Below are positions 9,201 through 64,000 of a stretch of 64,000 bases of DNA, one piece after another (the first letter of the stretch is position 1; every line of letters begins with the position of its first letter). Source of the DNA: Yuukianura sp. NJ FZ-2021 (lineage: Eukaryota); NCBI GenBank assembly GCA_046563655.1, contig CM102286.1, forward strand, positions 2,294,001-2,358,000, read 5' to 3'. The translations under genes were made by a program, and so were the position numbers. The notes beneath the pieces are model-generated. The model did not search any database, was not told the origin of the DNA, and was given only the letters and a program-made list of their open reading frames with translations.

Positions 9201-12200
9201 TTGATGGAGAATTCTTGTCAGGGAGCTTGAAAGCTTGTAAGTAAATGAACTTTAGAAACACATTTTTTGAAACAATTTTTGCATTTTTTTTTGTTTTGGT
9301 TTAGTATACTCAAAGGGGCAAATTCAGACGGACAAATACAGATTTTTGGCGAAAACTGGAGGCTGGGTGTGGTGTATCACACAAGCAACTGTACTCAAAT
9401 CCGAAAATGGATCCAAACCCAATGGCATCATTTGTCTCCACTTCGTTACTAGGTAAAATATATTATGTAATGTATTGGAAACTTTTTATGAAGTTTTAAG
9501 CTATTTCCAATCGTTTTCCAAAAAAAAATTTTTTTTTCGGTGGGATACTTCTGATTTAGAGAGAGCAGCTAACTGTTGCGCAATGAGAGGTTCCACTGTA
9601 TATCAATAACTTAACTCTTTTTGTTTGGTTTTCAGTGGAGTTGAAAACCAAGATGAAATAGTCTCCGTACTTCAATCGAAACCTGCTAATCTGTCCTTGG
9701 AGTCTGTCAACATCCAAACGGAAGCGCTCCAACTTCAAGATATCTTTCCCGGAGCTGGATTTAGCAACCCAACACCCAATACCGCGAAAATATTTGCACC
9801 AAAAACAGAAGATATGGATTCAGGGTTCCTTATGCCCTACGAGGATACGATGATTGGTAATTCAAAGTTTGAAAACTATAAATTGGGAAGGAATGGACCA
9901 AGTTTTTATTAATTTGTGCTTATTTTGAAAATTTCAGTGAGCAAGGAAGAACCGGAGGACTTGACACATTTGGCTCCCACGGCAGGAGAAGATTGTGTCC
10001 CACTCTGCGTTCCACTGCTGGATGATTTGCTTAGATCCTACGAAGAAGCTAACTTGTCCTTCACACAGTTTGGCAATTTCATTGATGTTGATGCACCGGA
10101 AATTCCGTTTTTCACGAATTATGACTCATCACTGCCAAGTAGCGCAGAATCATCATCTTCTGATGCTCCTCCTCTAATTGACCCAGTTTCACCTTCGTCC
10201 TTGTCACCACTTTTTCTGCACACGGATCCACAAATTACTAATGGTCTTGAGGAGCCTACTGTGTCGTATGTTCCATCCCCACCACAAATGTTCGTTTCGC
10301 CTGGTCCAGATAGTAGGCCATTAGTGTCAGATGAATCGCTGCGAGAGTATGGAACGCTGGAAGATGTGTGTTGTCCATGGGACCAAGACCTTGGCGGTCT
10401 CAAAACACCGGAATCTGGAGCAGACGAATCGATTTTGGACGAACTCTCAGAATTTCGAGCTCCGTATATTCCAACAGATAGTGGAGAAAAACTCTGTTCA
10501 GCGGCACCCATATTCAACATTTGGCCAGAACTTGAATTTCTGACGTAAGTTGTGCTGAAAATTATTTTGGATTTTATTCCACCCCATTTGAATTATTAAT
10601 GAAGCATTTTTTTTGGAAACAGGTCACAGAGAATTGAGCTGAATGATGAAGCATGTGTCCCACTGGCTCCACCTGGAATTGGAGGTGGGACGGGAGTAGA
10701 TACTGGCTTCTCAACGTAAGTTGTGTTAAAAGTTATTTTCAATAATTAATTGAACCGCATCGCGGAAAAATCATTAAACAGAAAGTTAAAAAAAGTTGTG
10801 CAGCTGGAAATCAGTACAAATCGTAAAACATGTACTCGTCGCCTTGGGGACGGGCTTTTTTAATACTATTTTCAAATTGTGCAAATTGGAAACAGTGTTA
10901 TCGGAGTAGCGTAAGTGAGTTGTTCTCGTTGAGTGAGACTTTTCATGAAATTAACGTTAGGGAGAAGTGTGAGTATAATAAGTTTCTTCCCTTCGTTTCC
11001 AGAAAAGTAGTGGATCCCTTTTCCGTTTTTTTTTTGAAGCGCTTAGTTTCGCACAGGATAACGCGTTATTTTAATGTATTGAAGAGGAGCAGTGTTGGTG
11101 GACGCTTAAACGTCCAGTGGCTTATTTGCCACTACCACTGGAAGAAATACACCGGAATGGATGAAACTTTTAGTGGACGGAAGAAATCAAGAATTTAGCG
11201 CGAAACTAAAAAAATCAAATTTAAAATTACAAAATAATACCCAATAGAGTTTCATTCATCGTTAAAATTAATTATTTATTCAAAACACATACAAAAACGA
11301 CACTTGCTTCGTTTTTGTACGGTATTTTGAATTTTTCAAGCTTTTTCTATTTAATTAATTCAAGCCCCGCGAGCAAAGCTCTGCCCCTTCGGATTCATTA
11401 ATTTCTTCCACTGGATATCCATCTGTGGACATCCAGTCCACAGATGGATATCCATACCTAACTGAATATCCATCTTCATAATTTTTGCAAAATTTCAAGA
11501 ATTCGAAAAAAAAATTTTTAAACACCATCACACCTTCTAACTTTCTAGCTTTTCACTTTTTGGAGAAAAGTGTATTTGTAAAACTTATGCAGAATTTAAA
11601 AAATTCCAAAATATTGTTTTTTTTTCAAACACCATCACACCTTCTAACTTTCTAGCTTTTCATTTTTTGGAAAAAAGTGTACTTTCAAAACTTATGCAGG
11701 ATTTAAAAAATTCCAAAATATTGTTTTTTTCAAACACGATCACAGCTTCCAACTTTCTAGCTTTTTACTTTTTGGAAAAAAGTGTACTTTCAAAACTTAT
11801 GCAGGATTTAAAAAATTCCAAAATATTGTTTTTTTTTCAAACACCATCACACCTTCTAACTTTCTAGCTTTTCATTTTTTGGAGGGAAGTGTATTTTCAA
11901 AACTTATGCAGAATTTCAAAAATTCCAACGTGTGGTTTTTTTTATCAAACACGATCACACCTTCCAACTTTCTAGCTTTTTACTTTTTGGAAAAAATTGT
12001 ATTTTCATAATTTATGCAGAATTTCAAAAATTCCAAAATTATTTCAAAAATTCCATGTATACATGATTTTGCGCATGCGCAACTCAACCCGCGCCGAACA
12101 AATCAAAAATATTAGATTTTGAGAATAAACAAAGGGTCTTGTGTTTTTAGACACACATTAAATTAAATCCAAGGCTTCTGTTCAAATCTACGGGTGACAG

Positions 12201-43900: not shown

Positions 43901-46900
43901 ACAATTTTTAGTCTTAATTTTGTATTTTGAGTAAATAATTTTCAAATTACTTTGTCAATTACTTTCTCTAATTTTCAAATTAATTTTTCTAGATGTGAGC
44001 TTGACAGCAATTCAGTGCTTGAACGACTACTACGTCAGTCTCCAGTTGGAAAAGGAAGATGAGTTCATTCAGCGATGTATGAGTCACCTTGCAGAAGCTA
44101 CGGAGGAGTTGAGTCATTGTACTCCCTCAGATGAAGCACCGCTGCTCAGAATTCAAAGGGCGCTGCTTCTGGAGAAAGCTACGTTGGAACTACAGTCGAC
44201 AGATTATGTGGCGGATTTGAGAGCCGAAGTTGTAAAGTGGTGGGAAAGTTTACAGGTAAACTGATCAAAAGTTGCCGAAAATTGAACCGAACCTTGGAAC
44301 CTTACATGAATTGGACGATTGGACGATAATTGCAACGCGATGTTCTTGATTTTGAAGGGTCATGGAACTGTAGAGAAAAACACTTCCACTCCTGTTCTAG
44401 GATCTCTTCTGACCGAAGGTCCTATTCGGATGATCACAAATGGAATTGAATTGTCAGCAGAGTATGATGAGAAATGTATAAGCGAAGTTCCTATCAAGGA
44501 TATGCAGGTGATTTATTACATTCAGAAGCACAGAATTTTGGAGGAAGATTTGCTTTAGTTTACGTACTTTAATAAACTTTGTTACATATTTTAGCTTGTC
44601 TATGTATCGCCTGGAGCGGGAAGATCGCATAAGAAGAAGGACAATGCAGAGTATTCGTCCTCACTTCTACCACCTCCAAGAGACAAGTTACCGGTTACCC
44701 TGTTGCTTCAAATGCCATACTTTGAGCAGCTTTTTTCACTTACGCAGTCACTTGCAACTTTGAAATCGTCGGATCGCTCAGGAGTAAGTATTTTATACAG
44801 TAAACCATCGACATATAGCTAATTTACACATCCGTGGTTTGTAGGAGTCGCAGCCACACACAAAAGGACAAGTCTTGTCCAGGCGCGTCTGGGATATTCT
44901 GATGCTGCTTCCTACTAATCCCGCCATACACGAAGGAATTGCAAATTCAATGCAGACGGAAGAAAACTTTTTCAGGACACTCCTTGATCCTGCGTCACCG
45001 CAAAAACTCATGTACTCTTTCTACATTGTTGAAGCTCTCGTCAAGAACAGCCCATCGAAGGTAAAAGATGTAAGTTATCGTGGAACTGGAACTGAGGAAA
45101 TAATAGATAAGTCAACTGCGATACTGTATTGAAGAATTTGTGTTTTTCAGGGTCAAAGTTCAGATTCCACTGCTTGGCGTCAAAACTTCATTGAGAGAGG
45201 TGGCCTGCGTCACTTATTTGACATCTTTGCTTCTGGTAAGGAGAACACGAGTTGAAAGTTTTGGAAATATGAATCTTAGTTATGTTATTTGGTTTAGGCG
45301 TTCTTGAGTCGATGGAAGGAGGAGACTGGAGTGAATGGAAACAAGACTGTTTGGCATCTCTTCTCAAGATTCTTTGTTTCTTGGGAATAATGACCGAAGA
45401 TACGGATTTTCTCAACGAACAACTGTATGACGTTAATGAAGTATCGCGGAAGAAGGCGAAGCGTCGAAAATGTTCAAATGATAAGTCTCCTATTCCAAGG
45501 CTGAATGACGTAAGTTCTTACGACATAAACAATTTACCTCAACCACGACAGATTATTATCAAAAGCTGGTTGATTTGCAGACAATGTTGGCAATGATGGA
45601 TGTTGGACAAGTGATGGCACGTTTGACGAATATATTTCAAGCATGTTCTCTGCCACGAGATCCAAATCACTACAAAACTGGGTTTTGGGGTCGTGCTCAG
45701 GTGAATAATCGTTAATTTACTGATTAGTGATTACTTTTAGAGAAATTGAATGATGTTCTAATTCACAAGGTTGTGCATTATGCCATGGCCCTATTGGTCT
45801 GCTGGGCTTTCTCTCGGGATGAGGTCAAGGCTGCTTTGTACTCTCAGAAAGATTTCCCAAATTGGCTCAGACGATTAGTACTGGAAGATCCAGAGCCAGC
45901 TGTACGGCGTGAAGTTTGTACGGGATTGTACAGACTCTGCTTTGGACCTTCTTCACTCTTTGAAAGCTTCACTTACTATAAAACCACAACAAAAACAAGA
46001 GGTAAGACTAACATATTTCTCATTAATTGAAGTTGATTCGCAATGTGAGACACTTTTGGTATTTTTTCCCATGCAGGTTCCAGTGCAGAACTTCGACGAT
46101 GGAAAGGAGCCGTACGGGCCTGCTTGCCGAGACTATTTTTGGCTTCTTGGAAGACTGCTGGATTGCTTGGAGGAAGATTTTGTTAAAGGTAAATTCAAAA
46201 AAAAAAAAAATTAGAATTAGTAAGAATTTGAAATATTTTGACACGCAGAGAGCAATGAAAATCCGGATACTTGTGTGATTGACCTGGATGGACTAGCTCG
46301 GACTCTGAGCAAAGCCATAATCAACAGAGAATACTACGAAACGCGACACAACACAGTTACAGATGACGCCCTTGTGGGTCTTCTCAACACTTGTACGATG
46401 ATCATGAAGCACAATCCTCCGTTCAAAACAAGTAAACAGGGTCAAGACTTTCTGAAGGAGGTCAGTTTCCTATTACTAATCTCAGCTGATTAATACGTAT
46501 TGAGGGAGGTTGTTAACATGTTGTGTTTTTGGCTATGAACAGATTTTTGACTGCCTGTTCGCATTGCCTTCTCCACAAATGCGTTACCTTCCGAAATGCA
46601 AGTCGCTACTTTGCAGATCTGCGGCCTTTGATTTGCTCACAGAAATGGCTAGATCAGCTGTTCAGAACTACTATCTTCTCCAAAACCTACTCATTGGACA
46701 GCATCAATCGAGTATGAAAGTACAAGTAATAGAGCAAGAGCATATTCTCCTAACTGAATTGACGTTCTTTTTATGTTTTTTTGATAGTATCACACACCTA
46801 CGGTTGGGATTATTGGCCACATGAAGACGGACGTTCGTCATGTGGATATGTTGGACTGACGAATCTTGGAGCAACTTGTTACATGGCGTCGTGCATGCAA

Positions 46901-48334
46901 CATAAGAGCTGCCATTCTCGGAGCTAAATTCTACTCGCAGAATAAGCATGAGCAAACGCTGCGTGAACTTCAAAGAATGTTTGCTTATTTGATGGTAAGT
47001 TATCTAAATGGTATTGGAGGAGTTACAGAAGTACTAAAAACGATTTATTCCATGTTCCAGGAAAGTGAGCGAAAAGCATATAATCCTCGCAGCTTTTGCA
47101 AAGTTTACCAAATGGATCATCAGCCGCTAAACACTGGTGAGATTTTTCATCATAAGACTTTCATTGAAATGTTGAAAACATGTTAATTCTTTTGTTATTC
47201 AAAATGTTGAAAATACTTTCTTGAAACTTAAAGGTGAACAGAAGGACATGGCGGAGTTCTTCATTGACCTTGTCTCAAAATTGGAGGAGATGACACCTGA
47301 ATTGCAGAAGCTAATCAAGACTTTGTTTTGTGGAGTGACGAGTAACAACGTCGTTTCCCTTGTAAGTATGACAAAAGATTTACAATTTGATTTAAAGTGA
47401 AAGTTTTCATAAGGAATTTTAATATTTTTACAGGATTGCCCACATGTGAGTCGAACATTAGAGGAATTTTACACGGTTCGTTGCCAAGTCTCAGATATGC
47501 GTACGCTCTTTGACTCTCTAAATGAAGTAACGGTGAGTGCTTTAACTTAACTTGGTGTTGACCATCATCGTTCCATCATACTTTATGATATCTTGTTTAC
47601 TATGTTTGGAATTAGGTGAAGGATACTCTGGAAGGAGACAACATGTACACTTGCTCTCAATGCGGCAAGAAAGTGAGAGCAGAGAAAAGAGCTTGCTTCA
47701 AGAAACTACCGAAGATCCTCTGCTTCAATACTATGCGTTACACCTTCAACATGATTACAATGACCAAGGAAAAAGTCAATACTCACTTTTCGTTTCCACT
47801 TCATCTGGACATGTCTGGATACTACTGGGTCTCCCCAGACCGACGAAAAAAAAATGAGATTGTGCAGCTTTTCCATTTTGATGCACCAAAAAAAAACAGG
47901 TTTCTTTGGCGATGTACAATTTTTTAAGGCCACTTCCCACACCTTTTTTTTGCGCGTTTCAGAATAACGAAATTTCTAAATGACAAGTGGGAAATTGAGT
48001 ATGGATATTCTGGTTTTAATTAGCATACTTGTTTCAGGGTTGACTATAGTGCTGTCTGAGTTTGAGTTCACCAAATTCAGAGACGAGATTAAGTTTAATG
48101 CATTGCAAAACCAGTTTGTTAGTATGCAAATTTTTGCCTGATTATTCTAGTTACACCATTTGAAAGCGCCTATTACCATGCAATTGATCAAACAGTACTT
48201 CAACCTCTTTCAGTTGTGTGAACACTTTCGAGTTAACTATTACCTTATTCCTTGCGTGCAGCCAGTTGAAATCTTAACTTGTGAATACGCTCTGAACACA
48301 CTAGGCATACGTGCATTACGTAACAACTAGTGAA

Positions 48335-51334
48335 ATGGATTGCCAGAAGACGGAAATCTTATTATTAATTCTTATTCTCCAATTCTCAATTGGCTCAATG
48401 TCCCCTCCAATTCAGCCATCGGCCGTTCCTACAGGGACTCTAACACCGTCGAGCTCAACTACAAACACGGATCAGTGCTTGCGCCTTATAAACGAGATCA
48501 ATTTCGCAATGTTCGGTGCAACTTCAAAAATGTTTCTAGAGATTGCATTGTCTTGTAAGACACAACTTGTTGGGGATATTCTTATCACAAAAACGTTCGC
48601 AATGTTTATTGACATTTTAAGTCGGACACCTACTTCAATAGTAGACCTCAGCACGGAAAGAGTAAACAGCAACGGCGCATCAGGCGTTGCTCTATTTACA
48701 GTTGGGAACTACCGTGATTCAACAATCAACTTAGTTCTGCAATCCACTGTTACACCTCTCTCTGATAGGCCGACTTTAGTATTGCTGCTGTTTGTTCCAG
48801 ATTGGTCGGCGTCTAGATTCAGATCCGTCACGTCGCTGCCAGAATGGTTAAATAAACCTATTGATGATGGTAATCATATTAACAGAAATCGAAACAGAAT
48901 CGAATTATTTTTAACAAATATGGTCTCTCTACAGGAAGGAAGATTAATGCACTTAAGTTGGTTGCCGTCGACAAAATTGCGTATGGGAATATATGTGATT
49001 CTTTTTGTTTGGAATTCGTCTCGCAAATCTGGAAGGAATTCAAAGTTGATGTGGATCTGCTTCCCACTTCAGTCACGAGAGAAACACCACAAATAGATTC
49101 AGATGGCCATCCCATTGATATGTCCGTCAGTTATTGCGGGCCTATAACAAGAAAAAATCTAAAAGCGAAAGATCTCCAATTAACATTGCCGTCTCCTGGT
49201 GCACCAAATTTGTGTCAACAAAATTTGCATCAGCCCTTCAGTTTCGCAGGACACCCATTGCACGCTGATGCTCAAAAAATGATCGTTAATGCCTACAAGC
49301 TGTACGAGGCGATCGGCATCCCAGAGAAGTTACTTACAATTCCCCAAGTGACAATCTCGAAGGCTGTAGCAAAAACCGTAAACGTTCACGCTGCATCAGT
49401 GTACAAGGTCATAAAAAAGCACAACAGAGGAGAAACCCTGTCAACTCCAAAGAATATTAAATTTCGTTTGGGAAGCGTGCGAAAGCATATCGAAAGCTTC
49501 GAGGCTGACCATATACGCAGAATTATTATTGAGTTCTACAAAAACAACATCGCTCCAACGTTGCAACAGATTTTCAACGAGTTCATGCGTACCCGCCCTG
49601 GCTTTGTCTGCAGCAAACAAACGTTTCGCAAGATTTTACGGGGACTGAATTTTAGATACAAACGAATAAATCGCCGAGCCATGCTGATTCAACGAATGGA
49701 AGTGATCACATTAAGAGCAAAATACTTGCAAAAATTTATTCCAAACACGGAAAAGCCCGAAAGCGCTCAAGATGACTACATTTTTCTTGATGAAACGTAT
49801 TAATAAAGAATTTAAATTCTTAAACAAATCACACTGTTTATGAGAAATTTAACTGTTTTCACAAACTTTACAGATGGATTGATCCTTACTCCCGAATCGG
49901 TAAAGGTTGGATGCCTCGCCAATTGTTATCATTCAAGGAGACAAGCAACTTCGCATACTCTACTGAGAAAGGCACGGACACGCCGCGGCTAATTGTTTTG
50001 GCAGCTGTTGCTCCCGATGGAATTATAAAGGAAAGCATTCTTGCATACCACGTCTCTAAATCGAAAAAAAGCGCGGATTACCACGATAATATAAACTCCG
50101 CAAAATTTATGCAATGGTTCGAGCTTCTACTGCCTGTACTGGCACGAAGACAAATTGAAACAGGGCGCAAGCAAGTAGTTGTTATGGACAATGCTCCGGT
50201 AAGGAAAAATGTTTACGATTGGTAGTATTGATTTTAACGAGTCATTATGCGTTTCACAGTATCACTCGAGCTCCAACGCGCCTTTATTAAACGCAAACAA
50301 AGCAGCTCTGCAGGAGTTTTTAAAGAATGAGGTAGACAAACTGGCTGGTAGGCTCGGAGCAGATCCGTTACGGGCAATAAATGATATGCGCGTACCTCAG
50401 CTCAAGGCTTATGTCAGAGAGTTGAAAAAGCGATTCAACTACTACACTATTGATGCAATTGCTAAGCTGCATAACATTGAATTGATACGACAACCACCCT
50501 GGTAAGAAAGCAAACTGCTGAAAGTAATTCATGCATTTCAGTTCTAAATTTATAAATACGCATAATGGTTGACAGGAACCCGGATTTAAATGTAATCGAG
50601 TACATCTGGAACGACATCAAAAGGATCACGCGGTCACGGAATGAAAACATGAGTCGTGTGCAGCTTTTGGCTATAGTGATAGAGGAACTTCAAAAGTACC
50701 CTGCATCTGAAGTGGCGAAGAAATACGCACATGTTGCTCGGTAACGCCGTAAATTAATCTAAACGACTTAACACCTTTTTCATAACTTTGAACTTAATAA
50801 CTTCGTGTAGCGTAGCGAAGCAGTTCTACGTCGAGGATAACATTTTCTTTGAACCACCGCCTCACCCTCCTGTTGTGGTATGTTTATCACAGGGTAATTG
50901 GTTATACGCCAATACGTTCAGTCGTTTTTGTCTTTGGTTACAGATATGCCTAGGCGAAGATGAAGATGAGGACGATGATGGAATTCAGGAGGATGAACCC
51001 TTGATGATGCCGACGTTGGTGGAAGAGAGAGCATTATACGACGAGGACGAACCCACAGAAGACACTTACGAAAATATAGTAATGCCCGAACTGCAAATGG
51101 AGAATCCCATCTGGGAAGCAGAGCTGGCTATGAAGTAAGTGTAACTAACTAATAACAATTTATAAAATAAAATTCATCAATTATTAATCTTTTTAAAGGT
51201 TAACTTACGACTTATTTCATGGTCAAGCCGATGGAATTGCGGTTACGGATGTCCTGGATTGGGAGGAAATAGATAAACAGCAACACAAAAGGGCTAGGCA
51301 GGAGTACACATGTCCGTATTTCCCACCAGAATAG
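48335..51334 (+). CDS. Intron-containing DD91E transposase, 8 exons, ~840 aa
   Basis: Exons 48335-48869, 48935-49796, 49874-50198, 50260-50501, 50576-50740, 50811-50877, 50944-51134 and 51199-51334 join through GT-AG introns into one 2523-nt frame. HTH-like region VAKTVNVHAASVYKVIK...PTLQQIF..CSKQTFRKILRGLNFRYK. Catalytic motifs IFLDETW, DYHDNIN, VVVMDNAPYH, RQPPWNPDLNVIEYIW. The start codon and the last exon are the least certain parts. Confidence 0.8.
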
Positions 51335-51597
51335 AATGCATTTTTTTTATACATTATTAAACATTTTAAATTTTTTGTTACGTTTTTTTTAGTACTTTGT
51401 TTTTTTTTTTAAGTAATTCTAAAAGTAATTATGAAATTAGTTTATTTAATGCATGTCCATCTATGTTTGGGTGCACTATGTGACAGGTGAGCACAATACT
51501 GGGAACCCACTCTTAGGTTGATTAACAAGAGAAATCCAAAAGTACGTTTTCATTTCAGTTTGTTTCTGGACAACAGTGTGCTAGGGTCGAAGGAAAA

Positions 51598-51900
51598 ATG
51601 GCTAATTGCCACGAAATTGTTACACCAATCGTTTGTGTAATGAACAAATGTGGCTGGGACGGTTCCTCATGCATTGAGAAGAAGACTATCTCTGAGATAG
51701 TCGGAAACAACGTAATCATTTACAAAGATAACGACGAAGTACTTTCAAAATCTGAGTTGGTCTATTCCGTATTGAGTAAGTCATATAAAACGTTGTTGAT
51801 AGTTAAGGTTCATTCCTTCATTTTTAAACCTAATGACGTCATTTTTAAACCTAATGACTTTAGTATGTCGAGAAAACGTTGATGCCACAGCAGTATCAAG
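51598..51900 (+). CDS. 5' fragment of a second, unidentified gene inside the transposon insert
   Basis: ATG at 51598 (aaaaATGG), exon to a gtaagt donor at 51776, acceptor tttag at 51863. The frame continues ICRENVDATAVSR up to the junction with USP34 sequence. No family recognised. Confidence 0.4.
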
Positions 51901-54033
51901 GTGTGGAGAAAAATAGTTTTTTGCTCGCCATACTTTCGGATTTTGAATTCAATCATAACAAGTTTTTGTTTTGTAAACAGAAGAGAAACTGAAGAAAATG
52001 CCAGTTAAGAAGGAGGGTGAAGAGGAAGTAATTCCGGCTGCAACAGCTGAAGTCGAGGAAGACGACGAGGATTGTCTGGAGTATGATTTGATTGGAGTCA
52101 CTGTCCACACTGGAACTGCTGATGGAGGTCACTACTACTCTTTTATTCGAGATCGCGTTTCCCCTAACAAGGACAAATGGTATTTGTTCAATGATGCTGA
52201 AGTGAAACCTTTCGACCCTAATCAAATTGCTGCCGAGTGCTTTGGTGGAGAAATGAGCGTAAGTCGTAATCGAAATTATTGAACTTTGAACTGATTTTCT
52301 TTGTTTAGATCTTGTTTCCATAATCTGAAATGAATTTGATCTGGTCACGGACAAGTTTATGGATTTTAGTTTCGAGAAAACGAATAGCGCTTGCATGCTG
52401 TTCTATGAAAGACGCACCTCTTCAGCTCAATTCGTACCTGGGACATTGGTACCGGCTTTACCTGGTGGATCTTCTCAGCGTCACCACCAATCACAAATTG
52501 TGCCTACACAAACTTTCGAACTAAGCAAGGAACTGGAAGACTGGATTTGGCAAGATAATACGCACTTTCTGAGAGACAAGAATATTTTTGAGCATACCTA
52601 CTTCAAGTAAGGGCCGTGGGGTTGAATTGTGGAGTTTGGAGTTACAGGATTTGGTCAATGGAAATTTATGTTTCAGTTTTATGTGGCAAATTTGTGGATA
52701 CATTCCACAATCACTGGTAGCCGAGGAGGACGTGTCCCTACTCGCTGCCAAGCTGTCTGTTACGTTCTTCTTGGAGACTTTCATTCATGCCAAGGAGAAA
52801 CCGACAATGGTGCAATGGGTCGAACATTTGACAAAGCAGCTCTCAGCGTCGCAAAGTGCAGCGGCGTGGTTTCTAGATCATATGGGTGAAACGGATTGGT
52901 GGCCAGTTCAAATCCTGCTGAAGTGTTCTAAATCAAATTGTGCGACAAATGTTTCAACGTCTCTGCATTCATGATGTGCAGCAAGTCAGGTAAGATGTTA
53001 TAGTTTTAAGCTGAATTTTCTGAAAATAAATTATGCAATTGCAATGTTTTTGCAGCCGAGCCCACCATGTTTCTCTTCTGTATCCGAAACCATTTGTGGA
53101 TCAGCCTGGGGATCCAGATGCCCTCACTATTGCGGAATACACAAACTATTCTTGCATTACAAGATTCATCAAACGATTACTTTCATTGGTAAGAACCAAA
53201 TACAGGAATTATATGAGATAGAGGTGTATAGTACGCGTGTGAAACTAAAATACAATGTTTTTTGATGCAGTTGGAACATGGTGCCAAGCAGTACTTGAAG
53301 AACTTGACTGAATACTTTACGCTATTACACGACTTTAGCAAGTTGGGAGATGAAGAGTGCCTTTTCTGATAAACATGGATGCTAACACGGTCATGGTCAA
53401 CTTTTATTTGGGAAAGAAGGAGGATCCGGTAAGCAAATCTTCGTCTTTTAGGAAAAAAATTTTCAAGTGCAATTTTTTTCGTAATTTAATTCAGATTGAA
53501 CATGGAAGCGAAGAAGAAGAGGAAGAGGAGGAAGTGGTGTGTATTCCTGCAGAAAAGAACAAAGTGACTTCTCTGGAAAAGATGATTGCATTAGTTGCAA
53601 TTTTAGTGTAGAAATCTCGGGATGATTCAAATCATCTTAAATTGTCACCGAATGATATGAACTCTCTCACTGGAAATGTGAAAGGACCGCCAGATCAGGT
53701 AAAGCCTTCCTTGGATTGAAAATTTATGTAAAACGCGTGTTTCTGAATTCTTGTTTTTTTCTTTAAATTGTAGAAGTTCCAGTTTATTCTTCAGCAAATT
53801 CGAGATGGAATTACTTTGCAAAGTACAAGGAATAGGATCTTCTCGCTGTGTCGCTGGAATGAACCATTAGCAAGAGATATTGTTGGTGCCATTATTAGTA
53901 CCATACGGAAGTTTTAATTTTGGAGGGAACGTATGTTTCAGTTTATCGGCTTATTTTTTACGATTGTTTTTTTTTTTGGTTAATTTTTTTTTGGTGCGAA
54001 ACAAAAGTAATTAGATAATTAAATGGAATTAAC

Positions 54034-54140
54034 TAATATTAATATATATATATTATATATATATATATCTATATTAATATATATATATTATATATATATA
54101 TATCTATATTAATATATATATATTATATATATATATATAT
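54034..54140. repeat. AT microsatellite-rich tract with ~35-bp higher-order unit
   Basis: tattaatatatatatattatatatatatatatcta is repeated about 3 times. Confidence 0.9.
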
Positions 54141-54250
54141 CTGCGCACAACCTGCGCAACAGCACACAAACTGCGCAACAGCGCACAACCTGCGCAACAG
54201 CCCACAAACTGCGCAACAGCGCACAACCTGCGCATGACAAGTTTTCACTT
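54141..54250. repeat. 19-bp minisatellite tract (copy 1)
   Basis: Unit caacctgcgcaacagcgca, about 5 copies, ending in atgacaagttttcactt. Confidence 0.9.
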
Positions 54251-55347
54251 GTTTATATTTTTATGGGAATATTTTTTTGGGAATATTTTTTGACTCGATT
54301 TTGACAACGTAAAATTCTTATCTAGGCGCTCCATAATTTACATACTATGCATCACGAAGCTACCGCTTGCCATGTGACTGGAGAAATTGTTGACCTTCTG
54401 AATCTGATCAGCAGCATTCTGCATAGTTTTCGAGCCAGAGATGTTCCTCAGCCAGTGCAGGTTTACGGGTCCAGTGAAGCAGTACAGATTCACAAGATTA
54501 TTGGGGCTTGTAAGGAGTGGCCAGAAGTTTTACGGAAGCTTGCTACTTTCCTCAACACTTACAACAGTGCTGAACTCAGGGTAGCTGCCATTGGTGAGTT
54601 TAGTTACTAGTACGTAGCTTACGACACGATCCTCTCCCGTTTATAATGTTTTCATTTGCCTTTTTTGCAGATACTATGACTGAATTCCTTTACCTGATGC
54701 CCTTGGACACGCTAAAGACGTTAGTTCCGTTGATGAGTCATTGTCACAGTGCTTACCAAGATGCTCAAAATACCGGGATGGGACCAGCTCTTGGTCCTAC
54801 CTTTCCAAAACGGACTCATCATACACACGGAGTCCCCATCAAGCCGTCCGTGAGACCGCCGCGGCCTATGCTCCAAATGGCTATACCACATCTAAACAGA
54901 GATTCTAGCAGAGAGCGGGCAGGATATAAGGTGATAACAGATTTTACATTGGTGAGGAATGTTGGTATAACTTTTTAACGGGGTACGGAATTCTTTTTAG
55001 GGATTTGAGGATGAATACGATCACCAACTTCGGGAATTTTATGCTCCATATCATGTCTTCGTAGACTTGATGTGTCGCTTTGCCTTCTTGAAGGATTTCA
55101 TTACCCAAGAATTAATCGCGTTGAGTGCAATGGTAGGCTACGAAGGGGCTCCACTTCGTATGGTCCACTTCCCAAAGTTGTGGACGGAAGTCAAAAAATC
55201 TCCGGTAACAAGCTCGCGAAACACATATCTGATATCAGTGAAGCTAAACTAGCGTTATTTGTTGAATATTTTCAGAATATTGACCGAAAGTACTTGCAAA
55301 TACTAGTCAACACAACCCATTTTACTGACTATGTCGAACTATGTCGA

Positions 55348-55500
55348 ACACAACCTGCGCAACAGCGCACAACCTGCGCAACAGCGCACAACCTGCGCAA
55401 CAGCGCACAACCTGCGCAACAGCGCACAACCTGCGCAACAGCGCACAACCTGCGCAACAGCGCACAAACTGCGCATGACAAGTATGACAAGTTTTCACTT
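55348..55500. repeat. 19-bp minisatellite tract (copy 2)
   Basis: The same unit at 55351, 55370, 55389, 55408, 55427 and 55446, also ending in atgacaagttttcactt. Confidence 0.9.
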
Positions 55501-56465
55501 AAGTTTTCCTCTATTTTCAGATTTGCAATCCCTTCTTCAAAGTGCTTACTTTGTTGTCTGAATTGGGAGGAATGCCACCAGGAATGCCGCCGTTTACTGA
55601 CTTCATCTTAGGCAAGATTTTGGATGTAATCGAGTGTTGTGCGTATCCAACACTGGAGTGGTTGGCCTCACAGGTTCGGTTTCATCTTCTTGTTAAAAAT
55701 TATAAAATAGAACATGTGAAATGCTTATAATAACGAATTTCTTCTCCTTTTACAGGTTCCACGGAACAAAACTGTTCAAGCCTGGTGTCTCGACACAATG
55801 GGGACTTGGACGGAACATTTTCTTCTAAGTCATTCGCAACAACGTGTCAGAAATGGTAATGCGATTGAAAAACCTCCATGATGACATGAGACAATGTACT
55901 AATACCTTCTTTTTTAATAAATCTGTTACTGGGAACTAGGAGCCGCATCACTTCTTGTGTCTGTTGTGCCAAATCAGGCATTCCGTCAAGGGTTCCGCAG
56001 TTCTAAAATATTCACGGGTCACCATTGCAGGGAAAATTACTCTCTGAGTCCAGAAGCTCTCGGTATTTTGCATACCGTAAGTTATTGTTATGTGCTATAT
56101 ATGGTTATATCGTGTGAGTTTTAAGTGATGTGAAGATGAATATGTTTCTCTTTGTTTATCTGTTACAGATTTATTTGAGACTATTGAATCTACTGAAGCC
56201 TGCAAAACATTACACGGATCCAGCAACCCATGGAACGACAAAGCTCACTGGTTACTTTGCCGTCCTCTCCTCACCTACTTTACCATTTCGAAGGCAGAAA
56301 GGCTGCTCGTAAGTTAGACAATAAGCTGTCACCATTAGAAAGCGCGGCTTTTCATGCATAGCTGATTTATTTTGTTGCAGTTTGGCCAGTATTTCTTGGA
56401 TTTGTGGAACCTCTTCCACCCGAAATTATCTGAACCTGCAATTTCATATTGCAGTGCATGCAGTT

Positions 56466-59400
56466 ATTTGAAGTGTGAAGGTGGCTTTAGTGAAAAAATC
56501 TCAAATGACGCATTTTTTGAAGTGTGAAAGTGGCTTTAGTGAAAAAATCTCAAATGACACATTTCTTGAAGTGTGAAAGTGGCTTTAGTGAAACTAAACG
56601 CGTTGCAGCTTAAAGGCTAACACAAACAACAGCATCAACATAGGCTAACCATAGCCATAACATAGCAACAACATAGGTTAAACATAGCCATAACATAGCA
56701 ACAACATTGGCTGAACATAGCCATAACATAGCGACAACATTGGCTATACATAGCCATAACATAGCAACAACATTGGCTATACATACCCATAACATAGCAA
56801 CAACATTGGCTGAACATAGCCATAACATAGCAACAACATTGGCTATACCAAGGCAACTAAACAAAATGACACACCGCATTATAAGGTAGTCTCACGAGCG
56901 GTTTTTTCAGCTTTTTTTGCGATATTTTTTAGTGGGGCGGATTTGCTAAGTTTCCAAGGAAATAAGAATTTATAAAATTCGTGCAAAGGTTGGTTGAGGT
57001 AACAATGAGGTGTTACCTGCAACCAGTGTTTAGTATTCAACACAAAATCGACAATTTGCCATTGACCTGCATTGAATTCTTAGCAATTATAAGCATAAAA
57101 CTGATATTATTGCATCTTCTAATCCTAAAACAAGTCTAAGCCATTGGTCCGACGATTGGTTGGACTGGGTGGTTACAATAGAGCAATTTACTTTGTATTT
57201 CGACCAAGGAGTGCACGAAAGAAAACGTTGTCACAGAAAACTTAAAAACAAACAATCCGCCCCACTATAAATTTACACAAAAAAAGCCGAAAAAACCGCT
57301 CGTGAGACTACCTTAGTAATGCGGTGTGTCTTTTTGTTTAGTTGCCTTGGGCTATACATACCCATAACATAGCAACAACATTGGCTGAACATAGCCATAA
57401 CATAGCAACAACATTGGCTGAACATAGCCATAACATAGCAACAACATTGGCTGAACATAGCCATAACATAGCAACAACATAGCCACAACATAGCCACAAC
57501 ATAGTCACAACATAGTCTAAACACAGCCACAACATAGTCAGAGCACAGCATAGTTAAGAGCTCAAGGTGCACAACATTTTTATGGAAACGGTTTTTTCAC
57601 ATTTGGTGCAATTGTGCACAAAAAGGCCCCACATCTGAACTGAAAATTATGAGCGACGTTTCGTTGCTTAAATCTCGTGAAAAAGGCTTCCTAATATTTT
57701 CCTTGAACCGGTTCACGGACAGCCGGTCTAGAAGCCGTATCAATTGTCAACGCCCTTCAGAAGAAAAATGCTCAACCCTTGAGCATCACCCTACCTTGTT
57801 CTGAAGTGTGAAAGTGGCTTTAGTGAAAAAATCTCAAATGACGCATTTTTTGAAGTGTGAAGGTGGCTTTAGTGAAAAAATCTCAAATGACGCATTTTTT
57901 GAAGTGTGAAGGTGGCTTTAGTGAAAAAATCTCAAATGACGCATTTTTTGAAGTGTGAAAGTGGCTTTAGTGAAAAAATCTCAAATGACACATTTCTTGA
58001 AGTGTGAAAGTGGCTTTAGTGAAACTAAACGGGTTGCAGCTTAAAGGCTAACACAAACAACAGCATCAACATAGGCTAACCATAGCCATAACATAGCAAC
58101 AACATAGGTTAAACATAGCCATAACATAGCAACCACATTGGCTGAACATAGCCATAACATAGCGACAACATTGGCTATACATAGCCATAACATAGCAACA
58201 ACATAGCCACAACATAGTCACAACATAGCAACAACATTGGCTAAACATAGCCATAACATAGCAACAACATTGGCTATACATACCCATAACATAGCAACAA
58301 CATTGGCTGAACATAGCCATAACATAGCAACAACATTGGCTGAACATAGCCATAACATAGCAACAACATTGGCTGAACATAGCCATAACATAGCAACAAC
58401 ATAGCCACAACATAGTCACAACACAGTCTAAACACAGCCACAACATAGTCAGAGCACAGCATAGTTAAGAGCTCAAGGTGCACAACATTTTTATGGAAAC
58501 GGTTTTTTCACATTTGGTGCAATTGTGCACAAAAAGGCCCCACATCTGAACTGAAAATTATGAGCGACGTTTCGTTGCTTAAATCTCGTGAAAAAGGCTT
58601 CCTAATATTTTCCTTGAACCGGTTTACGGACAGCCGGTCTAGAAGCCGTATCAATTGTCAACGCCCTTCAGAAGAAAAATGCTCAACCCTTGAGCATCAC
58701 CCTACCTTGTTCTGAAGTGTGAAAGTGGCTTTAGTGAAAAAATCTCAAATGACGCATTTTTTGAAGTGTGAAGGTGGCTTTAGTGAAAAAATCTCAAATG
58801 ACGCATTTTTTGAAGTGTGAAGGTGGCTTTAGTGAAAAAATCTCAAATGACGCATTTTTTGAAGTGTGAAAGTGGCTTTAGTGAAAAAATCTCAAATGAC
58901 GCATTTTTTGAAGTGTGAAAGTGGCTTTAGTGAAAAAATCTCAAATGACACATTTCTTGAAGTGTGAAAGTGGCTTTAGTGAAACTAAACGGGTTGCAGC
59001 TTAAAGGCTAACACAAACAACAGCATCAACATAGGCTAACCATAGCCATAACATAGCAACAACATAGGTTAAACATAGCCATAACATAGCAACAACATTG
59101 GCTGAACATAGCCATAACATAGCGACAACATTGGCTATACATAGCCATAACATAGCAACAACATAGCCACAACATAGTCACAACATAGCAACAACATTGG
59201 CTAAACATAGCCATAACATAGCAACAACATTGGCTATACATACCCATAACATAGCAACAACATTGGCTGAACATAGCCATAACATAGCAACAACATTGGC
59301 TGAACATAGCCATAACATAGCAACAACATTGGCTGAACATAGCCATAACATAGCAACAACATAGCCACAACATAGTCACAACACAGTCTAAACACAGCCA

Positions 59401-62400
59401 CAACATAGTCAGAGCACAGCATAGTTAAGAGCTCAAGGTGCACAACATTTTTATGGAAACGGTTTTTTCACATTTGGTGCAATTGTGCACAAAAAGGCCC
59501 CACATCTGAACTGAAAATTATGAGCGACGTTTCGTTGCTTAAATCTCGTGAAAAAGGCTTCCTAATATTTTCCTTGAACCGGTTTACGGACAGCCGGTCT
59601 AGAAGCCGTATCAATTGTCAACGCCCTTCAGAAGAAAAATGCTCAACCCTTGAGCATCACCCTACCTTGTTCTGAAGTGTGAAAGTGGCTTTAGTGAAAA
59701 AATCTCAAATGACGCATTTTTTGAAGTGTGAAGGTGGCTTTAGTGAAAAAATCTCAAATGACGCATTTTTTGAAGTGTGAAGGTGGCTTTAGTGAAAAAA
59801 TCTCAAATGACGCATTTTTTGAAGTGTGAAGGTGGCTTTAGTGAAAAAATCTCAAATGACGCATTTTTTGAAGTGTGAAAGTGGCTTTAGTGAAAAAATC
59901 TCAAATGACACATTTCTTGAAGTGTGAAAGTGGCTTTAGTGAAACTAAACGGGTTGCAGCTTAAAGGCTAACACAAACAACAGCATCAACATAGGCTAAC
60001 CATAGCCATAACATAGCAACAACATAGGTTAAACATAGCCATAACATAGCAACAACATTGGCTGAACATAGCCATAACATAGCGACAACATTGGCTATAC
60101 ATAGCCATAACATAGCAACAACATAGCCACAACATAGTCACAACATAGTCACAACATAGCAACAACATTGGCTAAACATAGCCATAACATAGCAACAACA
60201 TTGGCTATACATACCCATAACATAGCAACAACATTGGCTGAACATAGCCATAACATAGCAACAACATAGCCACAACATAGTCACAACATAGTCTAAACAC
60301 AGCCACAACATAGTCAGAGCACAGCTTAGTTAAGAGCTCAAGGTGCACAACATTTTTATGGAAACGGTTTTTTCACATTTGGTGCAATTGTGCACAAAAA
60401 GGCCCCACATCTGAACTGAAAATTATGAGCGACGTTTCGTTGCTTAAATCTCGTGAAAAAGGCTTCCTAATATTTTCCTTGAACCGGTTTACGGACAGCC
60501 GGTCTAGAAGCCGTATCAATTGTCAACGCCCTTCAGAAGAAAAATGCTCAACCCTTGAGCATCACCCTACCTTGTTCTGAAGTGTGAAAGTGGCTTTAGT
60601 GAAAAAATCTCAAATGACGCATTTTTTGAAGTGTGAAGGTGGCTTTAGTGAAAAAATCTCAAATGACGCATTTTTTGAAGTGTGAAGGTGGCTTTAGTGA
60701 AAAAATCTCAAATGACGCATTTTTTGAAGTGTGAAAGTGGCTTTAGTGAAAAAATCTCAAATGACGCATTTTTTGAAGTGTGAAAGTGGCTTTAGTGAAA
60801 AAATCTCAAATGACACATTTCTTGAAGTGTGAAAGTGGCTTTAGTGAAAAAATCTCAAATGACGCATTTTTTGAAGTGTGAAAGTGGCTTTAGTGAAAAA
60901 ATCTCAAATGACACATTTCTTGAAGTGTGAAAGTGGCTTTAGTGAAACTAAACGGGTTGCAGCTTAAAGGCTAACACAAACAACAGCATCAACATAGGCT
61001 AACCATAGCCATAACATAGCAACAACATAGGTTAAACATAGCCATAACATAGCAACAACATTGGCTGAACATAGCCATAACATAGCAACAACATTGGCTG
61101 AACATAGCCATAACATAGCAACAACATAGCCACAACATAGTCACAACATAGTCACAACATAGTCTAAACACAGCCACAACATAGTCAGAGCACAGCATAG
61201 TTAAGAGCTCAAGGTGCACAACATTTTTATGGAAACGGTTTTTTCACATTTGGTGCAATTGTGCACAAAAAGGCCCCACATCTGAACTGAAAATTATGAG
61301 CGACGTTTCGTTGCTTAAATCTCGTGAAAAAGGCTTCCTAATATTTTCCTTGAACCGGTTTACGGACAGCCGGTCTAGAAGCCGTATCAATTGTCAACGC
61401 CCTTCAGAAGAAAAATGCTCAACCCTTGAGCATCACCCTACCTTGTTCTGAAGTGTGAAAGTGGCTTTAGTGAAAAAATCTCAAATGACGCATTTTTTGA
61501 AGTGTGAAGGTGGCTTTAGTGAAAAAATCTCAAATGACGCATTTTTTGAAGTGTGAAGGTGGCTTTAGTGAAAAAATCTCAAATGACGCATTTTTTGAAG
61601 TGTGAAAGTGGCTTTAGTGAAAAAATCTCAAATGACACATTTCTTGAAGTGTGAAAGTGGCTTTAGTGAAACTAAACGGGTTGCAGCTTAAAGGCTAACA
61701 CAAACAACAGCATCAACATAGGCTAACCATAGCCATAACATAGCAACAACATAGGTTAAACATAGCCATAACATAGCAACATTGGCTGAACATAGCCATA
61801 ACATAGCGACAACATTGGCTATACATAGCCATAACATAGCAACAACATAGCCACAACATAGTCACAACATAGTCACAACATAGCAACAACATTGGCTAAA
61901 CATAGCCATAACATAGCAACAACATTGGCTGAACATAGCCATAACATAGCAACAACATAGCCACAACATAGTCACAACATAGTCTAAACACAGCCACAAC
62001 ATAGTCAGAGCACAGCATAGTTAAGAGCTCAAGGTGCACAACATTTTTATGGAAACGGTTTTTTCACATTTGGTGCAATTGTGCACAAAAAGGCCCCACA
62101 TCTGAACTGAAAATTATGAGCGACGTTTCGTTGCTTAAATCTCGTGAAAAAGGCTTCCTAATATTTTCCTTGAACCGGTTTACGGACAGCCGGTCTAGAA
62201 GCCGTATCAATTGTCAACGCCCTTCAGAAGAAAAATGCTCAACCCTTGAGCATCACCCTACCTTGTTCTGAAGTGTGAAAGTGGCTTTAGTGAAAAAATC
62301 TCAAATGACGCATTTTTTGAAGTGTGAAGGTGGCTTTAGTGAAAAAATCTCAAATGACGCATTTTTTGAAGTGTGAAGGTGGCTTTAGTGAAAAAATCTC

Positions 62401-64000
62401 AAATGACGCATTTTTTGAAGTGTGAAAGTGGCTTTAGTGAAAAAATCTCAAATGACGCATTTTTTGAAGTGTGAAAGTGGCTTTAGTGAAAAAATCTCAA
62501 ATGACACATTTCTTGAAGCGTGAAAGTGGCTTTAGTGAAACTAAACGGGTTGCAGCTTAAAGGCTAACACAAACAACAGCATCAACATAGGCTAACCATA
62601 GCCATAACATAGCAACAACATAGGTTAAACATAGCCATAACATAGCAACAACATTGGCTGAACATAGCCATAACATAGCGACAACATTGGCTATACATAG
62701 CCATAACATAGCAACAACATAGCCACAACATAGTCACAACATAGTCACAACATAGCAACAACATTGGCTAAACATAGCCATAACATAGCAACAACATTGG
62801 CTATACATACCCATAACATAGCAACAACATTGGCTGAACATAGCCATAACATAGCAACAACATTGGCTGAACATAGCCATAACATAGCAACAACATTGGC
62901 TGAACATAGCCATAACATAGCAACAACATAGCCACAACATAGTCACAACATAGTCTAAACACAGCCACAACATAGTCAGAGCACAGCATAGTTAAGAGCT
63001 CAAGGTGCACAACATTTTTATGGAAACGGTTTTTTCACATTTGGTGCAATTGTGCACAAAAAGGCCCCACATCTGAACTGAAAATTATGAGCGACGTTTC
63101 GTTGCTTAAATCTCGTGAAAAAGGCTTCCTAATATTTTCCTTGAACCGGTTTACGGACAGCCGGTCTAGAAGCCGTATCAATTGTCAACGCCCTTCAGAA
63201 GAAAAATGCTCAACCCTTGAGCATCACCCTACCTTGTTCTGAAGTGTGAAAGTGGCTTTAGTGAAAAAATCTCAAATGACGCATTTTTTGAAGTGTGAAG
63301 GTGGCTTTAGTGAAAAAATCTCAAATGACGCATTTTTTGAAGTGTGAAGGTGGCTTTAGTGAAAAAATCTCAAATGACGCATTTTTTGAAGTGTGAAAGT
63401 GGCTTTAGTGAAAAAATCTCAAATGACACATTTCTTGAAGTGTGAAAGTGGCTTTAGTGAAACTAAACGGGTTGCAGCTTAAAGGCTAACACAAACAACA
63501 GCATCAACATAGGCTAACCATAGCCATAACATAGCAACAACATAGGTTAAACATAGCCATAACATAGCAACAACATAGGTTAAACATAGCCATAACATAG
63601 CAACAACATTGGCTGAACATAGCCATAACATAGCGACAACATTGGCTATACATAGCCATAACATAGCAACAACATAGCCACAACATAGTCACAACATAGC
63701 AACAACATTGGCTAAACATAGCCATAACATAGCAACAACATTGGCTATACATACCCATAACATAGCAACAACATTGGCTGAACATAGCCATAACATAGCA
63801 ACAACATTGGCTGAACATAGCCATAACATAGCAACAACATTGGCTGAACATAGCCATAACATAGCAACAACATAGCCACAACATAGTCACAACATAGTCT
63901 AAACACAGCCACAACATAGTCAGAGCACAGCATAGTTAAGAGCTCAAGGTGCACAACATTTTTATGGAAACGGTTTTTTCACATTTGGTGCAATTGTGCA
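56466..64000. repeat. Hierarchical tandem satellite, 820-971-bp higher-order units, running off the window
   Basis: Each unit has several copies of a 49-bp repeat (gaagtgtgaa[a/g]gtggctttagtgaaaaaatctcaaatgacgcatttttt), an array of 33-bp repeats built from 11-mers (aacatagccat / aacatagcaac / aacattggctg), and a ~260-bp non-repetitive spacer. The marker gagctcaaggtgc occurs at 57558, 58469, 59429, 60334, 61205, 62025, 62996 and 63940. Confidence 0.97.
56849..57349. mobile_element. MITE with ~65-bp TIRs and 8-bp TSD (P-superfamily-like CAAGG ends) inserted in the first satellite unit
   Basis: TIRs CAAGGCAACTAAACAAAATGACACACCGCATTATAAGGTAGTCTCACGAGCGGTTTTTTC... and the near-perfect reverse complement ending at 57349. 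Exact TSD GGCTATAC at 56841-56848 and 57350-57357. Confidence 0.88.

Follow-up and report, generated by a model that had tools for sequence, protein, structure and literature searches.

Can a transposase gene that is split by introns, in an element without inverted repeats, still belong to a unit that moves? The question is raised by a 4042-bp element that interrupts a copy of the gene USP34 in Yuukianura sp. NJ FZ-2021, within a stretch of 64,000 nt of contig CM102286.1; this whole stretch is called the window below, and positions are counted within it. In the textbook picture of the Tc1/mariner group a one-exon transposase lies between inverted repeats, and relatives that bear introns and have no such repeats have so far been read as domesticated. 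The element in the window bears the marks of a real and recent insertion. We think it probable that it is a cut-and-paste transposon from the group called IS630-Tc1-mariner (ITm), that it belongs to a clade of long proteins within or next to Sailor (DD82E-type), and that it was inserted recently as DNA.

Public contigs were compared with the window over 46500-53500. They came from the runs X1, X2 and X4, which represent one sample (organism A), and from the run X5 (organism B). The insertion and the exon around it are laid out as follows.

47616..47821, + strand: USP34 exon before the insert (...FSFPLHLDMSG), 91-94% identical to three USP34 orthologues over 47616-47822
47820..47821, + strand: left copy of the duplicated target TA (joint 47819->51864, where 2 letters fit either side)
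47822..51863, + strand: inserted element, 4042 bp; the empty-site contigs in X1, X2, X4 and X5 skip 4044 nt
51864..51865, + strand: right copy of the duplicated TA
51864..51900, + strand: USP34 exon after the insert (YVEKTLMPQQYQ, then donor GT at 51901); in the empty allele LDMSGYVEKTLMPQQYQ is followed by GT, and the next exon begins at 51981 in matching phase

The joint 47819->51864 is present in contigs of all four runs; in X2 record 10, for example, 47347-47819 is followed by 51864 onward for 97 letters. The filled form reads ...TCTGGA-TA-CTACTGGG...GACTTTAG-TA-TGTCGAG... and the empty form ...TCTGGA-TA-TGTCGAG..., with a single TA, and comparison of the two places an insert of 47822-51863 between duplicated TA dinucleotides. 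The target site duplication that a preliminary description of this locus had proposed to look for is thus present, and the span which that description gave to the element (47823..51902) has to be corrected, as the last 39 bases (51864-51902) belong to USP34. Since the empty form restores a continuous USP34 exon, LDMSGYVEKTLMPQQYQ, with its GT donor at 51901 and the acceptor at 51980/51981 in phase, the element lies inside a coding exon and not in an intron. The host gene was identified through named orthologues at ~60% identity, of which the best is from an arthropod.

Two internally deleted forms of the element, with the joints 47967->51582 (one extra A) and 47975->51737, were found in three or four runs, and at other sites three unlike flanks abut 47819/47820, each preceded by TA. 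The empty site, copies with internal deletions and the recurrence of the left end beside other sequence together argue for a recent DNA-mediated insertion of the Tc1/mariner type and not for a fixed host gene; the presence of introns in the inserted copy indicates that movement was via DNA and not via mRNA. The preliminary claim of recent mobility stands on these three observations, while the contrast it had drawn between an intact element and a lesioned host gene is weaker evidence than the empty site.

Domestication, as proposed for TLEWI (Puzakov et al., 10.1101/656579), would make of the locus a fixed host gene in a large USP34 intron, and the introns, the lack of inverted ends, the intact frame and the apparently low copy number are all features of TLEWI as the accessible text of that paper gives them. 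The site is, however, unoccupied in organism B and in further contigs of the same sample, contrary to the single fixed gene that the preliminary description had set out as an alternative. The borders are moreover exact to the base and fall in a coding exon, not an intron, and deleted copies sit in other flanks, so that we hold domestication to be highly improbable.

The inner part of the element was recovered in X1 as a single contig of 3479 nt (47971-51449) with 5 differences from the window, and X1 record 4 (305 nt, 51687-51991) crosses the right junction with 0 differences. Between the window and the X1 contigs of the element there are five differing sites, four of them non-coding and one synonymous. 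Depths in X1 were 45.9 for the inner part, 46.6 for the window-type right flank, 141.4 for the collapsed left flank and 81.7 for the empty joint, each being one figure per contig and not a copy number. By these depths and the single contig the filled form is in the minority, and no second near-identical full-length copy is evident. A more distant copy is represented by X2 record 14, with 58 differences in 421 nt; no second copy was found within the 64-kb window. As a separate observation, a stretch of ~90 nt in the 3' part of the element (51406-51494) occurs in 5-8 contigs with other continuations, while the deleted copies resume only at 51582 or 51737. This stretch may be a separate repeat nested in the element.

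A split gene between unlike ends

The transposase gene extends over 48335-51334 on the + strand and consists of 8 exons and 7 GT..AG introns in a single frame. Its parts are listed here (L049, P0032 and P0035 are relatives described in the next section).

47822..48334, + strand: 5' non-coding part, putatively promoter and untranslated region; no frame continuous with exon 1, and an in-frame stop at 48302-48304 upstream of the ATG at 48335
48335..48869, + strand: exon 1, hydrophobic start and first part of a family-specific N-terminal domain (C..LINE..F.E...C)
48935..49796, + strand: exon 2, remainder of the N-terminal domain (S.S.C and P..N.C motifs), putative helix-turn-helix (HTH) region and first catalytic D (DET)
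49874..50198, + strand: exon 3, catalytic core to the second D (DNAP), with a DYH.N motif; DDE_3 profile positions 41-89
50260..50501, + strand: exon 4, long D-to-E spacer
50576..50740, + strand: exon 5, catalytic E663 (NPDLNVIEYIW); DDE_3 positions 117-137, the motif aligning to DLNPIE of SB100X in relatives
50811..50877, + strand: exon 6; the introns on either side of it (5 and 6) coincide in column and phase with introns 4 and 5 of L049
50944..51134, + strand: exon 7, acidic tail
51199..51334, + strand: exon 8, final part of the tail, including a basic patch (KRAR) also found in P0032 and P0035, and stop at 51332-51334

When the exons were spliced, the preliminary model of seven canonical introns, one frame of ~840 aa, a complete triad and a 91-residue spacing was confirmed. 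The coding sequence of 2523 nt specifies 840 aa and a stop, with 0 internal stops. The triad consists of D464 (DETW), D571 (DNAP) and E663 (IEYIW), the third motif reading NPDLNVIEYIW, and 106 residues separate the first two D whereas 91 lie between the second D and E (DD91E). Introns 2, 3 and 4 do lie beside catalytic motifs as described, cutting DE-T/W (phase 2), DNAP/YH (phase 0) and PP-W/N (phase 2), respectively. The seven introns measure 65, 77, 61, 74, 70, 66 and 64 nt, and the G+C content is 0.436 in exons versus 0.283 in introns. In six of the seven there are stops or a change of frame. For intron 6 (66 nt) an in-frame read-through is possible, but an L049 intron matches it in position and phase; all seven are predicted to be spliced. 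An origin as introner copies was rejected, since the introns are not alike (the best pairwise local score was 13; shuffled sequences gave 8.3 on average and 17 at most).

A scan based on open reading frames would miss this gene, as had been foreseen, because the exons singly give only sub-threshold Pfam scores (DDE_3 at 13.2 and 17.8 bits, below the cut-off of 28.6). The HTH matches in exon 2 are weak (HTH_Tnp_Tc3_2, E 0.043; HTH_33, E 0.14); HTH_23 was matched in 3 of 20 family members (best E 8.9e-5), and helices are predicted at that region in the model of P0032. The N-terminal domain matched no Pfam family in 20 family members, and an Atlas lead for it, to lamin-tail-domain proteins, scored 0.79, which is under the meaningful level. 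No non-coding RNA was found in 47700-52000, where there was no Rfam family at E<=1 and no tRNA. Of 16 columns without variation in an alignment of 13 family sequences the protein keeps 15, and it keeps 66 of the 105 that are invariant in three full-length relatives. Residues 1-25 (48335-48410) form a hydrophobic stretch (EILLLILILQFSIG) that is signal- or anchor-like and odd for a nuclear enzyme; P0035 and P0008 are likewise hydrophobic at the N-terminus.

The terminal regions that the deleted copies retain have the following features.

47822..47967, + strand: left terminal region kept in internally deleted copies (joints 47967->51582 and 47975->51737), with no inverted partner
51582..51863, + strand: right terminal region kept in deleted copies (joints of these copies; X1 record 4)
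51818..51858, + strand: pair of direct repeats of 20 nt each (TCATTTTTAAACCTAATGAC), separated by one base and ending 5 nt short of the element's tip

A 12-nt palindrome, AATGACGTCATT, spans the junction of the two direct repeats at the right end, and the left end has nothing comparable. The element starts CTAC... and finishes ...TTAG, and the two ends share only CTA...TAG (3 nt). Their likeness as direct repeats does not exceed that of shuffled sequences (score 26, against a mean of 23.8 and maximum of 44), and no DNA likeness was found between the ends of the element and 80 metagenome loci. The terminal inverted repeats (TIRs) expected in the preliminary description were sought at both ends and none were found; for want of them, the transposase would have to recognise two unlike ends.

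The same lack of inverted repeats would suit an element in which the gene is only a passenger, possibly with a host-like function, the 4-kb unit being mobile but moved by another transposase, or having been copied by repair into a double-strand break with 2-nt microhomology. Such a passenger would also fit the host-like architecture of seven short AT-rich introns in the size range of USP34 introns, the hydrophobic start that is odd for a transposase, and the fact that the full-length form is one contig at single-haplotype depth while the ends occur in more contigs. Against it, the TA on both sides is the hallmark of the superfamily to which the encoded protein belongs, and the left end is found beside three other flanks as well, each time after TA. 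Two different internal deletions keep both ends, as in abortive gap repair of a cut-and-paste element, and the triad is kept together with the invariant columns of the family. We consider the passenger explanation unlikely, and the cut-and-paste transposon encoding its own enzyme is the reading carried forward here.

Relatives and family placement

A phmmer search with exon 2 returned 275 proteins at E<=0.001, the best with 38% identity. Three relatives are colinear over their full length: P0032 (866 aa, metagenome), P0035 (815 aa, from the springtail Allacma fusca, and named in the database 'Tc1-like transposase DDE domain-containing protein') and the gene of L049 (at least 1047 aa, metagenome contig). 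The order common to these and the window protein is N-terminal domain (C..LINE..F.E...C), S.SRC, TPG..N.C, helical and putatively DNA-binding region, DDE core, acidic tail and final basic patch. The nearest relative is L049, with 36% identity over 802 aligned columns and 45-46% in the core; identical over aligned residues are, for exons 1 to 8, 47/169, 102/276, 53/109, 32/75, 20/55, 3/23, 20/60 and 14/35. This alignment over all eight exons indicates that the gene model is more than chance. In P0032 and P0035 the DDE_3 score lies above the Pfam cut-off (46.8 and 50.4 bits). The AlphaFold model of P0032 (mean pLDDT 58) had as its best Foldseek match the Mos1 mariner transposase (E 2e-4, probability 0.99); a second model had a mean pLDDT of 53, and both are too weak for a fold comparison of the N-terminal domain by itself. 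A sequence search of the PDB gave only SB100X, weakly (E 0.24), with the third catalytic motif opposite DLNPIE.

The triad pattern could be read in 13 of 153 proteins, eleven of them with DD81-83E (380-538 aa), the others being P0032 (DD92E) and P0035 (DD85E). The catalytic part of P0032 matched 75 shorter proteins, nearly all with DDE_3 and PF27940 in a precomputed database list. Of these, 39, together with 11 from the exon-2 search (all proteins of at least 370 aa), made up 50 Sailor-type rows for a tree. The D..E spacing was readable in 47 of the 50 and was 79-85 in 44 of these, the pattern-read spacing of the remaining three being 36; a DYH motif before the second D was present in 43 of 47 (its name is that of the preliminary description, not of PMC8533490). 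In a maximum-likelihood tree of 59 rows, which are database and metagenome homologues and not named Sailor, Tc1, mariner or pogo references, nine long-protein rows, the window among them, are set apart from the 50 DD79-85E rows by a branch with an SH-aLRT of 100, and the window pairs with L049 (support 99). On sequence grounds the element is thus a member of a distinct long-protein clade with an N-terminal extension of ~300 aa. The DD79-85E homologues outside the clade, the DD78E to DD111E range reported for Sailor (Shi et al. 2021, PMC8533490) and the DD91E and DD92E entries in the accessible part of the supplementary table of those authors lead us to file it as a Sailor-like member of the ITm group, which upholds the label it had first been given; it fails on protein length, 4-bp duplication and inverted ends.

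Metagenome loci were searched with a three-row alignment (A2), a broader one (A1) being too diverse. Two of the loci, L001 (the contig of P0032) and L002 (protein 69% identical), are intronless elements of ~4.7 kb whose inverted ends, of 43 nt (100% complementary) and 54 nt (94% complementary), respectively, have arms that start TATA and then GT. These intronless elements with inverted ends after TATA show that the clade consists of real transposons, and also that the lack of TIRs is not clade-wide. In the 6-kb contig of L049 no inverted repeat of at least 18 nt was found, the ends of that element being undefined. Among viral contigs 26 pattern matches to relatives were obtained, 0 of them confirmed. 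L049 (1987-2679), like P0001, carries a parvovirus-type phospholipase A2 (PLA2)-like domain, PF08398, at 36.5 bits (cut-off 23.9) with YCGPG and HD..Y motifs; it lies ahead of the N-terminal domain that the relatives have in common, upstream of the annotated start the frame stays open, and the window protein has no such domain.

The introns of the clade are mostly private. L049 has five, of 66-76 nt, of which introns 4 and 5 coincide with introns 5 and 6 of the window in both alignment column and phase; the other three of L049 and five of the seven in the window are not shared. L018 has at least two, one of which lies two codons beyond intron 4 of the window in equal phase, and L001 and L002 have 0. 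A contig of organism B matches from exon 5 on, the unlike letters before it ending in a pyrimidine run and AG, and the divergent X2 copy matches both flanks of intron 2 and not its interior; both, at low depth, fit conserved intron positions with diverged interiors. With 0 to 7 introns at mostly different positions, and two common to its nearest members, the clade is a natural series for the study of intron gain, and it is one that scans based on open reading frames miss as a whole.

Taken together, the element probably went as DNA, introns included, into a TA within a coding exon of one of the USP34 copies and duplicated this TA; short internally deleted copies with the same ends lie elsewhere in the genome. 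The protein that it encodes is presumably the enzyme that moved the copy in the window. A broader proposal, which we offer tentatively and with some doubt, is that the clade became gene-like, with introns gained piecemeal, a lack of inverted ends and accessory N-terminal domains (including a viral-type PLA2 in a sister lineage), and yet still transposes. If so, its transposase would recognise unlike ends, perhaps via the added N-terminal domain, and L001/L002, L018, L049 and the window would form a dated series of intron gain in a mobile gene, with 0, 2, 5 and 7 introns.

Several points weigh against the element being such a transposon. Inverted repeats are absent, both terminal and subterminal (best inverted local score 19, against a shuffle mean of 18.9), and a comparison of the two retained ends at k=9-14 gave 0 inverted matches, which is below shuffled sequences. 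The duplication, as the empty site shows, is the 2-bp TA, unlike the 4-bp TATA of Sailor in the accessible text of PMC8533490. Of the 105 columns invariant in the full-length relatives 39 are changed in the window protein, and NPIE has become NVIE. With a one-row IS630 root the long-protein clade falls among the DD79-85E rows with support of only 82-87, on a root branch 4.7 long; this tree held 36 of the 50 Sailor-type and five of the nine clade rows, and the IS630 sequences L082 (a split gene) and L083 (2 stops) were left out. Splicing is predicted from the gene model. The right end is seen only in the window copy, and among the loose ends listed those of other copies depart before 51863. The empty form may be a paralogue or another haplotype and not a population polymorphism, and the contigs may come from the source sample of the window itself and hence be no independent proof.

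The USP34 copy and the rest of the window

The host gene had been described as dead, and for the copy in the window this holds: its frame is shifted at 46903 and at ~52928, and its C-terminal pieces are scrambled. The same sample, however, holds a version of USP34 free of these lesions at the places examined. At 46903, right after the catalytic Cys box (GATCYM), 20 nt of exon are missing from the window; they are present in all X1, X4 and X5 contigs and in X2 at 298/683 of the depth, and they restore the frame. At the second frameshift (52926-52931) X1 and X2 contigs have one letter fewer at 52930. In 52263-52343, at an exon border, contigs of X1, X4 and X5 have 92 other letters in place of a 79-nt stretch. 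Within 54311-56443 the C-terminal order is scrambled, orthologue residues ~1289-1533 (54326-55338) standing ahead of ~917-1120 (55491-56443); simple repeats with AQPAQQRTTCATAHNLRNS-type units occur at ~54078-54293 and ~55307-55561.

Could the insert, or the lesions around it, be assembly artefacts of a repeat-rich, heterochromatin-like region? The disagreement of window and contigs by 20 nt at 46903 and, in X1 and X2, by 1 nt at 52930 would be of this kind, as would the USP34 pieces out of order and the long satellite array downstream, and some of the USP34 lesions may indeed be assembly errors. For the insert itself, the 3479-nt contig of the inner part with its 5 differences and the contig across the right junction stand against an artefact, and flank contigs ending at 47821 imply the left junction. 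Of the readings weighed here, it is the one to which we give the least credence.

Over 52105-52228, on the right side of the insert, the other version of USP34 has ten differences from the window that are spaced in multiples of three, at third codon positions, and organism B shares its letters. This pattern indicates two old, once-constrained versions of USP34 on this side; in the left flank (46500-47821) the versions differ by 1 letter and 20 gap positions. They may be alleles, paralogues or sex-linked copies. The insertion of a transposon into a coding exon of an otherwise decaying USP34 copy may point to a non-recombining or duplicated region.

Going by open frames alone, we take the neighbouring genes over 7800-38000, whose introns are all of similar short size, to be as follows: at 7.8-10.5 kb a bHLH-PAS protein, at 14.8-15.4 kb (- strand) a seipin-like gene, at 17-28 kb an MRCK-type kinase and at 31-38 kb an ARID4-like protein. 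A tandem repeat of ~107 nt at 11541-12010 has repeated open frames (LSSFSLFGEKC...KFQNIVFFSNTITPSNFLAF). At 56600-64000 there is a tandem satellite array with units of roughly 820-960 nt; in every unit the + strand has one and the same open frame of 88 aa (SEHSIVKSSRCTTFLW...) and the - strand a short CCCYVMAMFSQ-type repeat.

Comparison with known systems

Classical Tc1/mariner elements have a DD34E or DD34D transposase of ~340-360 aa, encoded in one exon between clear inverted ends. With Mos1 and Sleeping Beauty the window element shares the TA target duplication and a protein with a DDE/D RNase-H-like core and, putatively, an HTH region. Within its own clade it has the same domain order end to end as L001 and L002, but unlike them has introns and no inverted ends; it is intron-rich like L049, and differs from it in having no PF08398 domain. 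For the spacings DD85E, DD86E, DD90E, DD91E, DD92E and DD111E only the Sailor paper was found to be relevant, no account of the long-protein clade came to light, and no relevant literature was found for a PLA2 domain on a transposase; as subscription journals were mostly outside reach, absence from the literature is unproven for the clade and for such a domain.

Sailor elements, in the accessible parts of the paper (Shi et al. 2021, PMC8533490), have spacings from DD78E to DD111E (over 90 in arthropods), transposases of 323-676 aa, a duplication of 4 bp (TATA) and inverted ends that begin with GT or CC; the supplementary table lists DD91E in the springtail Tomocerus qinae and DD92E in Eupelmus, the latter with 666 aa and no TIR found. 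Like these, the window protein has a D-to-E spacer (91) inside the range 78-111 and extra residues between the first two D, and in L001 and L002, which belong to its clade, the flanks are TATA and the inverted ends begin with GT. Unlike them, it has 840 aa as against at most 676, an element without inverted ends, an N-terminal extension of ~300 aa that the accessible text of PMC8533490 does not mention, and seven introns; the word 'intron' occurs in that text only in the title of a reference, and not in the supplementary file.

TLEWI, in the accessible text of Puzakov et al. (10.1101/656579), is a DD36E transposase of 322-378 aa in 3-6 exons from pteriomorph bivalves, with no TIRs or target site duplications found, low copy number and an intact, gene-like look, and it is argued there to be domesticated. 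The window element resembles it as an intron-split ITm transposase gene without TIRs, at apparently low copy number and gene-like. It differs in being DD91E, in its 840 aa, in its arthropod-like host and in the direct evidence of insertion, and with an empty site, TA on both sides and deleted derivatives in hand, introns together with absent TIRs are weakened as a criterion of domestication.

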